Part shown: piece after piece, positions 22,053 to 23,695 of the stretch | Layout of the letters: every line of letters starts with the position of its first letter | How positions within the stretch are numbered: position 1 is the first letter of the stretch | NCBI GenBank assembly: GCA_013288045.1 | Contig: JABDCP010000003.1 | Coordinates: 1,899 to 65,898 of the forward strand | Length of the DNA stretch: 64,000 nt | Reading direction: 5' to 3' | Source of the DNA: Candidatus Babelota bacterium | GTDB lineage: Bacteria > Babelota > Babeliae > Babelales > Babelaceae | Position numbers and translations under genes: made by a program | Notes under the pieces: model-generated | What the model was told of the DNA's origin: nothing | Database searches by the model: none | The model's input: only the letters and a program-made list of their open reading frames with translations

Positions 22053-22128
22053 GGGGTTGTAGCTCATCTGGTAGAGCGCATGGATGGCATCCATGAGGTG
22101 ATGGGTTCGAGTCCCATCAACTCCACCA
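22053..22128 (+). tRNA. tRNA-Ala (anticodon GGC), CCA encoded
   Basis: Manual fold: acceptor GGGGTTG/CAACTCC with the G3:U70 alanine identity pair, D-arm GCTC..GAGC, anticodon stem CATGG/CCATG with loop ATGGCAT, T-arm ATGGG-TTCGAGT-CCCAT, then ACCA. Confidence 0.9.
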
Positions 22129-23413
22129 ATCTATTCTTTTCTCTAATGATAGGCAAGTAGCTATAACTATACCCATCAGATTTGTGAATGATTCTACATG
22201 CTGTATGTTTAATGCCTGTTACTATTCCCTGAGGTCTAAGTATGTCGAAGTATCCACTTGATCTTACCGCAACTTTACCAAGATGGGTACCCTTTTTTTT
22301 CCCATCTTTGACTATAGCTTTGATCATATCGCCAGTTTGAAAGCCGAACTTTTTTTTATTTTTCTTTGATTGAGTGCGCGGAAAACCATATTTATCAACT
22401 TTGCACATTTGGCGTGAGCCGTGACCTGTAGCCTTTACTAGCAAAGGTTGTAGATCATTTATTAATAATTTCTTTGGTGTCGAGATCCCTACACACGCTG
22501 CATCAATCCAATGTGCTTTCTCAAGACCTTGCTCCATTCTATGAAGTTTTGTGAGAGCTCCGGTGCCTGTTTCTAGCGGCAAGCCATTCGTTTCTATTCG
22601 TTTAAGAAGAATTATTCTTGTAATATTCATTGCTGCAGCATCTTTTAATGATGATTGAGCATATTTTTGCACTTCAGGATAGCCAAATTCATGCGCATTT
22701 TGATTACTTTTCATTTGGTTACAAGACTTACAAGAGATAGCTAGGTTTGAGACTCTATTACTTCCTCCTCTTGATTTAGGCACAATATGGTCTATTTCAA
22801 GGGGACGATCCTTACCCCCACAGTAGCAACATTTCCGACCGAATTTTTCCAGAAGGTACTCTCTCACCTCATATCCTTGGAGCGCACCTTGTTGGTATTC
22901 AATCCCCGAAATCTCCGCATTCTGCATCAATTGGGTATCGAATTTAGCAATTTCTACGCTTATGTGGGAGATGGGGCTATATCGCATGAACCGTTTTATC
23001 CAGGTTTCATCGTTCGCAATTCTGCTGCCAAAAGAAGGTGGCAACCATCCACTCGCAGTTTTTCTGTTGTTATACCTTGCTTCACGATAGCGGGTATTCC
23101 TGTATCTTCTCGATTTTCTAGAGCTTGCCCGAGATATCATAGATCGTGAAATTGTTTTACTGCGATGGCTAATTTCAAGAGCACTAATAACCTTTCCCGT
23201 TTTGTCATCCACTAGGGCCATGCCAGTGGTAGTACTTCCAGGATCAATTTTTAAACGTAATGGTCTAACCTTTTGAAGAGAGTCTTCATTAAGAATAATA
23301 GTAAATGGGAACCGTCTAAAGACAGCAGCTTTGCCTCCTTTTAGTAATAGTCGGGCATCTGCAGGACGGCAGGGGTTGACCGGCTTTTTATTGTTGTCGA
23401 TAACTAGTACCAT
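22064..23413 (-). CDS. iscB: IscB-type RNA-guided endonuclease (RuvC with inserted HNH)
   Basis: 449 aa from ATG 23413. It has a PLMP-like N-domain (KPVNPCRPADARLLLKGGKAAVFRRFPFTIIL), RuvC-I IDPGSTTTGMAL and an Arg-rich bridge helix (SRKSRRYRNTRYREARYNNR). It also has RuvC-II VEIAKFD, HNH CCYCG..EIDHIVPKSRGGSNRVSNLAISCKSCNQMKSN, RuvC-III HWIDAACVG and a C-terminal ..IHKSDGYSYSY. The 44 aa upstream in the tracked ORF have no IscB character. The last 21 codons plus the stop are antisense to tRNA-Ala. Confidence 0.85.
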   Translation of the reverse strand: MVLVIDNNKKPVNPCRPADARLLLKGGKAAVFRRFPFTIILNEDSLQKVRPLRLKIDPGSTTTGMALVDDKTGKVISALEISHRSKTISRSMISRASSRKSRRYRNTRYREARYNNRKTASGWLPPSFGSRIANDETWIKRFMRYSPISHISVEIAKFDTQLMQNAEISGIEYQQGALQGYEVREYLLEKFGRKCCYCGGKDRPLEIDHIVPKSRGGSNRVSNLAISCKSCNQMKSNQNAHEFGYPEVQKYAQSSLKDAAAMNITRIILLKRIETNGLPLETGTGALTKLHRMEQGLEKAHWIDAACVGISTPKKLLINDLQPLLVKATGHGSRQMCKVDKYGFPRTQSKKNKKKFGFQTGDMIKAIVKDGKKKGTHLGKVAVRSSGYFDILRPQGIVTGIKHTACRIIHKSDGYSYSYLPIIREKNRLVELMGLEPITSWMPSMRSTR

Positions 23414-23661
23414 GTTTTTTCCTTCGCCCATTTCTGGGGTAACGTGTGCCTCGCTAATGTTAATCAGCGGCATATCATAGAAGCACGGACTTATACCCTC
23501 AGTCTTATTAGCTTCTATGTTACAGAGCTTGGAACTGGCAAGCATCCCAAGGTGTGATTTTTAGCGCTCCTAATTAACGTAGCCCGATGACTACACTAGT
23601 CCTGGCTGAAGCTGGTCAACGCGAGCTGTTGAGCTGCGCCAATAATGGCGCGGTAATTGAC
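22129..23661 (-). mobile_element. IscB-only element (probable immobilised IS200/IS605-derived or island remnant) bounded by tRNA-Ala 3'-end direct repeats
   Basis: The 1.53-kb segment contains only iscB plus its upstream structured region and is flanked by the 34-nt direct repeat. I found no tnpA, integrase or recognisable subterminal ends. Confidence 0.5.
23414..23661 (-). ncRNA. Candidate IscB omega-RNA (guide plus scaffold); boundaries uncertain
   Basis: This 248 nt lies immediately 5' of iscB on the same strand, where characterised IscB loci encode their omega-RNA. Nested hairpins include CATAGAAGC/GCTTCTATG (23476-23519) enclosing GACT/AGTC, and GCGCCA-ATAA-TGGCGC (23636-23651). GAAGGA lies just before the ATG. 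Confidence 0.45.
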
Positions 23662-23695
23662 GAGGCCATGGGTTCGACTCCCATCAACTCCACCA
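23662..23695 (+). repeat. Duplicated 3' fragment of tRNA-Ala (31/34 identical to 22095-22128)
   Basis: gaggCCatgggttcgaCtcccatcaactccacca versus gaggTGatgggttcgaGtcccatcaactccacca in the intact gene. Similarity stops abruptly 5' of gagg. Confidence 0.9.

Follow-up and report, generated by a model that had tools for sequence, protein, structure and literature searches.

An iscB element inserted in a tRNA-Ala gene of a Babelota bacterium, with the 3' part of the tRNA present on both sides of the insert

Introduction

Among described mobile elements, those closest to the locus presented here are the iscB elements of the insertion sequence (IS) family IS200/IS605. The locus lies in a 64,000-nucleotide stretch of Candidatus Babelota bacterium (assembly GCA_013288045.1, contig JABDCP010000003.1), hereafter the window, and consists of an iscB gene and its omega RNA inside a tRNA-Ala(GGC) gene. 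In iscB elements, the target-adjacent motif (TAM) abuts the left end; the TAM of GstIscB is TTCAT, and single-base changes in the TAM abolish cleavage (Meers et al., bioRxiv 10.1101/2023.03.14.532601). The right-end motif and the TAM differ at two positions, about 98.5% of iscB genes have no tnpA nearby, and the elements are biased toward the same orientation as the gene upstream (Meers et al., bioRxiv 10.1101/2023.03.14.532601).

Like non-autonomous IscB elements of this family, that of Geobacillus stearothermophilus for example (Meers et al., bioRxiv 10.1101/2023.03.14.532601), the window element has its putative guide in the flank, a TTCAT TAM abutting the other end and a right-end motif that is two positions off the TAM; it is oriented like the upstream gene, and no tnpA was found in cis among the reading frames scanned. 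In contrast to canonical IscB elements, it has no left-end hairpin and carries a 34-nucleotide (nt) copy of the target plus 23 nt instead; its target is inside a tRNA gene, and the TAM of the occupied site is mutated.

A second group for comparison is formed by the genomic islands and prophages that tyrosine integrases insert at tRNA genes. There, as in the window, a repeat of the tRNA 3' part brackets the insert, and the second 3' copy keeps the gene intact. The window locus differs from them in that no integrase was found among the open reading frames (ORFs) scanned, the 1.57-kb insert is an IS, and its boundary is set by the TAM and the right end, not by the core of an attachment site.

IStrons, which combine a group I intron with an IS200/IS605- or IS607-type element (PMC4227781), resemble the window element as insertion sequences equipped for harmless insertion into genes. 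They restore the gene product by RNA splicing, whereas in the window the gene is restored at the DNA level, by duplication of the displaced segment; Rfam scans found no ribozyme at the locus. Homing endonucleases, and the type V-K CRISPR-associated transposons that home to tRNA genes, recognize an unoccupied conserved gene and leave the occupied allele immune. At the window locus, the putative immunity would come from point changes in the TAM and the seed, and not from disruption of the site, and there is no Tn7 machinery. In the literature, we found no report of IS200/IS605 or IscB elements within tRNA genes, or of IscB in Dependentiae.

Site of Insertion

The element, which lies on the minus strand, is a non-autonomous member of the IS200/IS605 family with two components, iscB and its omega RNA (HEARO). 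Probably, it entered the tRNA-Ala gene at its TAM, a second copy of the tRNA 3' part (T') rebuilt the tRNA, and the left end was lost. The features that bear on this history are the following (window coordinates).

22053-22128, plus strand: rebuilt intact tRNA-Ala(GGC) gene (ARAGORN; 63 bits with the Rfam tRNA model)
22064-23413, minus strand: iscB coding sequence, 449 amino acids (Pfam, structure matches, homologue alignment)
22090-22094, plus strand: mutated TAM, TCCAT, where seven of the eight empty-site genes have TTCAT (tRNA nt 38-42)
22095-22128, plus strand: T', second copy of tRNA nt 43-76, located where the left end of the transposon is expected to start and completing the tRNA
22129-22151, no strand assigned: 23-nt filler, ATCTATTCTTTTCTCTAATGATA, between the CCA end of the tRNA and the point where homology to the iscB of relatives resumes
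23439-23661, minus strand: omega RNA scaffold, full length (Rfam HEARO RF02033, 108.1 bits against a gathering score of 83, model positions 1-211 of 211)
23657-23661, plus strand: right-end terminal motif TTGAC, whose reverse complement GTCAA is invariant in the window and four relatives
23662-23695, minus strand: T, displaced native tRNA nt 43-76, the flank read as omega-RNA guide, abutting HEARO model position 1
23697-24512, minus strand: upstream DUF4097-like gene, whose homologues carry PF13349, oriented like the omega RNA and iscB

The insertion was defined by comparison with empty sites. The DsbD-like neighbor protein yielded five syntenic loci (L001-L005), in which no HEARO was found, and homologues of the DUF4097-like neighbor gave four further loci from the same genus (L011-L014), each with one tRNA and no iscB. 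The empty-site set comprises L001-L004 and L011-L014, from eight related genomes, all eight of which have a single tRNA at this site, no tRNA fragment and no iscB; the duplication therefore came with the element. The first-pass annotation of this DNA had reasoned that relatives carrying the fragment without iscB would point to an unrelated, older duplication, and none of the eight is of that kind.

The closest empty site, L001, is syntenic with the window at 93-95% nucleotide identity. It has one tRNA-Ala(GGC), which reads ...GCATTCAT up to the insertion point and GAGGTAATGGG...ACCA beyond it, followed directly by the sequence that comes after position 23695 in the window; the two blast segments of the window against L001 overlap by 40 nt on L001. 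Relative to the empty sites, the insert measures 1567 bp, and it is wholly accounted for by the omega RNA, iscB and 57 nt (the 23-nt filler and the 34-nt copy).

The TAM was read from six IscB relatives (L006-L010 and L015; 58-67% identity over the listed best local alignment). Immediately beyond the iscB-distal end, L006, L007, L008, L010, and L015 have ATGAA, which is TTCAT on the opposite strand, and L009 has ATGAT; from these flanks, TTCAT is the TAM of the window's IscB clade. In seven of the eight empty sites (L001-L004, L011, L012, and L014; L013 differs), tRNA nt 38-42, directly before the duplicated segment, spell this same pentamer, and by our arithmetic the probability that a random 5-mer is TTCAT is about 0.0015 at this base composition. 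At this tRNA site, TTCAT is conserved across Dependentiae-like genomes. The empty sites read TTCAT/GAGG... and the window ...TTGAC/GAGGCC..., that is, an insertion adjacent to the TAM with the right end on the downstream flank, joined to nt 43 of tRNA-Ala(GGC). As judged from these alignments, the right-end junction is that of a canonical TnpA-type insertion 3' of TTCAT, at tRNA position 42/43.

Among the comparison loci, L003 (9453-9797), from a more distant relative, has a tRNA-Ala(CGC) about 190 nt upstream of tRNA-Ala(GGC), with TTCAT at nt 38-42 in both. A paralogous tRNA-Ala of this sort is the kind of template able to supply a second 3' part in the window lineage. In L006, L007, and L009, a gene for an AAA_14/DUF4143 ATPase lies about 1-4 kb downstream of iscB, which may be a coincidence or a shared insertion neighborhood.

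Omega RNA and Guide

The iscB gene had been described in the first-pass annotation as a stand-alone nuclease locus, a description that does not hold in the presence of a full omega RNA. The HEARO lies 25 nt before the iscB start codon, on the same strand. The right end of the transposon is formed by the 5' terminus of this RNA, at 23661, and repeat copy T begins at the next base, 23662. In the alignment with four relatives, conservation begins abruptly at GTCAA and the sequence upstream is unrelated, as a guide or flank should be. The right-end motif TTGAC differs from the TAM TTCAT at two positions. The predicted guide takes its first 16 nt or so from 23662-23677, and the RNA would read 5'-UCGAACCCAUGGCCUC-3', followed by the scaffold. 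By position, then, the tRNA fragment T occupies the predicted guide segment of the IscB omega RNA.

The stop codon of the DUF4097-like gene lies 1 nt from the guide segment, and no convincing minus-strand promoter was found between this gene and the omega RNA. Together with the shared orientation, this fits read-through transcription of the omega RNA, of which the DUF4097-like gene is likely the source. A sub-threshold Rfam match to tmRNA at 23628-23695 (plus strand; 22.9 bits against a gathering score of 47) does not represent a tmRNA; it arises because the tRNA-like T-arm and acceptor in the displaced fragment pair with GTTGA in the complement of omega-RNA P1.

The IscB Protein

The start codon of iscB is the ATG at 23413 (MVLVID...), and not position 23545 as annotated earlier. 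The protein has the Pfam domains RRXRR (3.5e-62) and HNH, and matches solved IscB structures (OgeuIscB 7xht/7utn, and others) with E-values of about 1e-32 to 1e-34. In these structure matches, IDPGS, VEIAKFD, DHIVP..N, and HWIDAAC align with catalytic positions, in agreement with the hallmark motifs recognized at first pass. The protein also keeps all columns that are invariant among nine homologues. To judge by sequence, IscB and its omega RNA look intact. Searches for a Y1 TnpA, an integrase, a recombinase, a TnpB or a second IscB found none among the 41 of 55 window ORFs scanned (at least 70 amino acids), in line with the earlier statement that integrase and TnpA are missing.

Homology to the iscB loci of relatives, and with it the conserved IscB protein, ends right after ...SDGYSYSYLP, near 22152. 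The remaining tail is a read-through over the filler, T' and the antisense strand of the tRNA, into which the frame continues for 65 nt before its stop at 22064. Among the C-terminal tails of the 120 closest IscB homologues, antisense-tRNA read-through was seen in the window protein only. In the clade of this IscB (L006, L008, L010, and L015), the ORF passes through the left-end hairpin and stops at the TGA within the TAM (ATGAA on the iscB strand); as this stop codon sits in the TAM, outside the element, the length of the protein tail is set by the insertion site. The ancestral TAM would likewise end the window frame at the TGA inside it (..TCA TGA A), as in relatives such as L015, and the change to TCCAT adds nine codons to the ORF.

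The Repeat and the Left End

The direct repeat spans 34 nt (22095-22128 and 23662-23695), with 31 of 34 positions identical (91%) and 1567 nt from start to start. ARAGORN, Rfam, and the repeat search thus agree with the earlier finding of an intact tRNA-Ala and a 31/34 repeat around iscB. A search for further copies found the 26-nt core of the repeat at two places only in the 64 kb, with 0 expected from shuffles. In the rebuilt tRNA-Ala(GGC), nt 1-42 are native and nt 43-76 are T'; G3:U70 is present, as read from the sequence. The other copy, T, runs on into the native downstream flank exactly as in the empty site L001. It also retains the ancestral T-loop C59, found in all close relatives, whereas T' carries the derived G48 and G59. 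T' shares its lineage-specific T-stem ATGGG/CCCAT and its acceptor stem with the native gene, which makes a local origin of T' the simplest.

A direct repeat of the tRNA 3' part thus brackets the insert and is absent from the empty sites, as is characteristic of tRNA-integrated islands. IS200/IS605 elements are characterized by the lack of a target-site duplication, whereas here 34 target nt stand on both sides of the insert. We read the 34-nt duplication as a secondary rearrangement; its length and position do not fit a duplication made by a transposase.

At the opposite end of the element, the nested hairpin CAGCGC..CTCCG..CGGAG..GCGCTG, which lies downstream of iscB in L006-L010 and L015, is absent from the window. 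The subterminal left-end hairpin of IS200/IS605 elements is therefore missing, and in its place are the 23-nt filler and the second copy of tRNA nt 43-76, the tRNA 3' part and the filler together reading GAGGTGATGGGTTCGAGTCCCATCAACTCCACCA-ATCTATTCTTTTCTCTAATGATA. T' shows no resemblance to the hairpin of the clade. Two origins of these sequences were tried and rejected. The filler is not significantly similar to the tRNA-downstream flank of its own or a related species, allowing for divergence (p 0.07-0.99). AACTCC, a 6-nt microhomology, occurs both in the hairpin at the left end of clade members and in the acceptor strand of the tRNA, and a template switch at this point predicts a sequence that, by eye, matches the observed one at only 5/27 positions.

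The proposal that IscB reached, or is maintained at, a tRNA gene by a route atypical of its family is consequently right for one end only. The right-end junction is an ordinary TnpA-type junction; what is atypical is the absence of the left-end hairpin and the recopied tRNA segment. Similarly, of a full IS200/IS605 element, which had been thought to argue against that proposal, the right end and the TAM can be reconstructed at this site, and the left end and tnpA cannot.

Changes in the TAM, Target and Guide

Compared with the closest empty allele, L001, the window tRNA-Ala differs at positions 39, 48, and 59 only. T39C converts TTCAT to TCCAT and replaces a G:U pair by G:C, A48G falls at protospacer position 6, and C59G at protospacer position 17. 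Between the two genomes, there are no differences in tRNA-Ser (0/93), in the signal recognition particle (SRP) RNA (0/92) or in tRNA-Ala nt 1-38 (0/38), against 3/38 in tRNA-Ala nt 39-76. The chance that all three changes fall in these 38 of 261 nt is 0.003 (C(38,3)/C(261,3)), a value to be read with the fact that the split at 38/39 was chosen after seeing the data.

Between the resident tRNA and the guide, there are mismatches at protospacer positions 5 (a G:T wobble), 6, and 17, in addition to the TCCAT TAM, which would be defective. The resident target thus reads TCCAT followed by GAGGTGATGG..., as opposed to a target of TTCAT followed by GAGGCCATGG.... A perfect match to the guide would be TTCAT+GAGGCCATGGGTTCGA; the L001 allele has TTCAT+GAGGTAATGG... 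and the L012 allele TTCAT+GAGGTCATGG.... All three lineage-specific tRNA changes are thus in the TAM or the protospacer, a pattern that fits an escape from self-cutting. The same changes might instead have been introduced by error-prone repair close to the break, or the upstream copy might not be orthologous in origin.

In the relatives, D-loop position 15 and variable-loop position 48 covary, with T15 and A48 in L001 and G15 and C48 in L011-L013 and L002-L004. T15 is common to the window and L001, where it pairs with A48, and the other relatives have G15/C48; AGGTA is therefore the probable reading in the ancestor of the window lineage. Guide copy T now reads AGGCC, which makes two changes in 34 nt. 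The covariation of positions 15 and 48 is consistent with a Levitt tertiary pair; the window tRNA has T15 with G48.

History of the Locus

The history that we consider probable, namely entry of the IscB element at the TAM of the tRNA-Ala gene followed by rebuilding of the tRNA and loss of the left end, can be laid out as a series of steps. A canonical insertion would have disrupted the tRNA, or IscB may have repeatedly cut restored alleles. A break on the side of the TAM and left end would then have been repaired, with an intact tRNA-Ala on the sister chromosome or in a paralogous gene as template for the synthesis; the left end would have been deleted at the same step, when the mended end was joined to a point within the element. 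Such a repair would account for the second copy, its sequence differences and the loss of the left end, and the filler would fit it only if the gene copied was a paralogue flanked by these 23 nt. Having lost its left end, the element would no longer be movable by TnpA, and the rebuilt tRNA would escape the resident nuclease through its TCCAT TAM and its mismatches to the guide. The IscB-omega RNA complex could still cut unoccupied TTCAT alleles that match the guide, or the locus may be a young fossil.

Several observations weigh against this history. The filler has no other copy in the window and no significant match among the tRNA-downstream flanks of the genus, so that the repair scenario is a proposal. 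In the seed, two neighboring positions of the guide copy have changed from TA to CC relative to the nearest empty allele, and the divergence of this copy, 2/34, is close to the neutral rate in the flanks (14/300 and 6/93), so that it may be drifting rather than serving as a working guide. The polarity of the two copies is ambiguous, in that C59 marks the downstream copy as ancestral, yet T47 is common to L001 and the upstream copy. In the window IscB, 11 substitutions at otherwise invariant columns are unique to it, whereas close peers have 3-8 such substitutions and the most distant homologue 17; to the extent that this excess reflects relaxation, the relaxation would be mild at most.

Finally, no second example was found in two metagenome scans at the Joint Genome Institute (JGI), in a viral scan or among the 120 homologue tails. 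The JGI scan for a tRNA-Ala-like 3' part joined to the HEARO start (GGAG N10 TCGAAC N6 CCTC GTCAA NN ACC) gave 0 matches, as did the one for a donor, a native tRNA-Ala with the variant T-loop of T'; neither recovered the window's own lineage, so these are weak negatives. In viral contigs, a search for a T-loop within 4-16 nt of the HEARO start returned five matches, all by chance, with no tRNA and no HEARO continuation.

A different reading, in which T' is not the trace of a repair event, deserves some attention, unlikely as we hold it to be. It takes the unit [T'-iscB-omega RNA] as a cassette that spreads into the TTCAT of tRNA-Ala genes, with T' as a surrogate left end or a homology arm, mobilized either by a TnpA acting on the T-arm hairpin or, once IscB has cut an empty allele, by recombination through the tRNA halves. 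Because such a cassette would always carry a spare tRNA tail, its insertion would be harmless. Both junctions are indeed exact (TAM/T' and right end/T), with no extra bases, and the iscB frame through T' would stop at the TGA of the TAM exactly as in relatives. The G48 and G59 of T' are unlike the native state of the lineage and are followed by a non-native flank, as if imported; the guide matches the tRNA-Ala(GGC) alleles of the genus except at one or two seed positions; and the conservation of TTCAT described above would make this tRNA a good homing site.

Set against this are the lack of a second occupied tRNA in the scans just described, and the fact that the 90% protein cluster of this IscB has one member, on one contig. 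The T-stem and acceptor stem of T' match the native gene, for which a local origin is simpler, T' is unlike the left-end hairpin of the clade, and the mutated TAM of the occupied allele would block excision by TnpA as well. It is accordingly doubtful that the IscB element is a transposase-independent homing cassette, with the displaced tail as guide and the occupied allele immunized by TAM and seed changes. If true, it would be a DNA-level counterpart of the homing endonucleases borne by introns or inteins.

That the locus is a decayed island, inserted by an integrase at the 3' end of tRNA-Ala and reduced to its IscB element, was one of the two explanations first offered, and it now appears very improbable. 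Classically, an integrase leaves as its footprint a direct repeat of the tRNA 3' part and an intact gene on one side of the insert, and duplication of a tRNA tail is not known from any other mechanism. However, the repeat boundary matches, to the exact base, both the omega-RNA/right-end boundary and the TTCAT/G site, the insert is 1567 bp in length with just 23 nt unaccounted for on its other side, the window ORFs scanned hold no integrase, recombinase or island cargo, and the sites in eight related genomes are plainly empty.

It is scarcely credible that iscB merely lies between copies produced by an older unrelated duplication or by the assembly: metagenome-assembled genomes can contain chimeric joins at repeats such as tRNA genes, but no fragment is found at empty sites, the Logan assembly of SRR8435198, which is independent, is 100% identical over 19064-23913, both junctions included, and the repeat copies differ at three positions, which argues against a collapsed or duplicated assembly repeat.

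Other Features of the Window

A tRNA-Ser(GGA) and, 11 nt after it, the small SRP RNA occupy 13376-13571 (plus strand), with the same layout in L001, L002, L003, and L005; both RNAs are 100% identical between the window and L001. Two tandem genes for TLC-type ATP/ADP translocases, typical of intracellular energy parasites, are found at 8513-11715 (plus strand), and together with the syntenic TM6/Dependentiae loci they point to, and fit, an energy-parasite lifestyle.

Genes of eukaryote-like or effector type are represented by a RING-finger (zf-RING_2) protein at 35342-36760 (minus strand) and a Fic/DOC-domain protein at 48790-49887 (plus strand). A tandem array of five paralogous ORFs of about 260-300 amino acids, with 29-50% pairwise identity and no Pfam match, extends over 54723-58924 (minus strand), and a second paralogue pair, with 49% identity, over 46685-48477.

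Significance

The element itself is of a known kind; its configuration is unusual and has been seen in this one case. Where the left end should be, there is indeed a rebuilt tRNA, a feature that is tied to the insertion and unique as far as has been searched. As a single locus with no recurrence found, it is of limited general importance unless more cases appear.

For the annotation of bacterial genomes, the locus indicates that direct repeats of tRNA tails, usually taken as proof of an integrase, can also surround an IS200/IS605 element. It also provides a natural substrate pair, TCCAT/GAGGTG versus TTCAT/GAGGTA or GAGGTC, for the TAM and seed tolerance of a compact IscB.

If the proposed history is right, this would be a natural OMEGA nuclease (obligate mobile element-guided activity) whose guide points at an essential-type gene of its host. 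The outcome of the resulting conflict would then be recorded in the sequence, as a gene rebuilt by partial duplication, a lost left end, and an allele changed in its TAM and seed.

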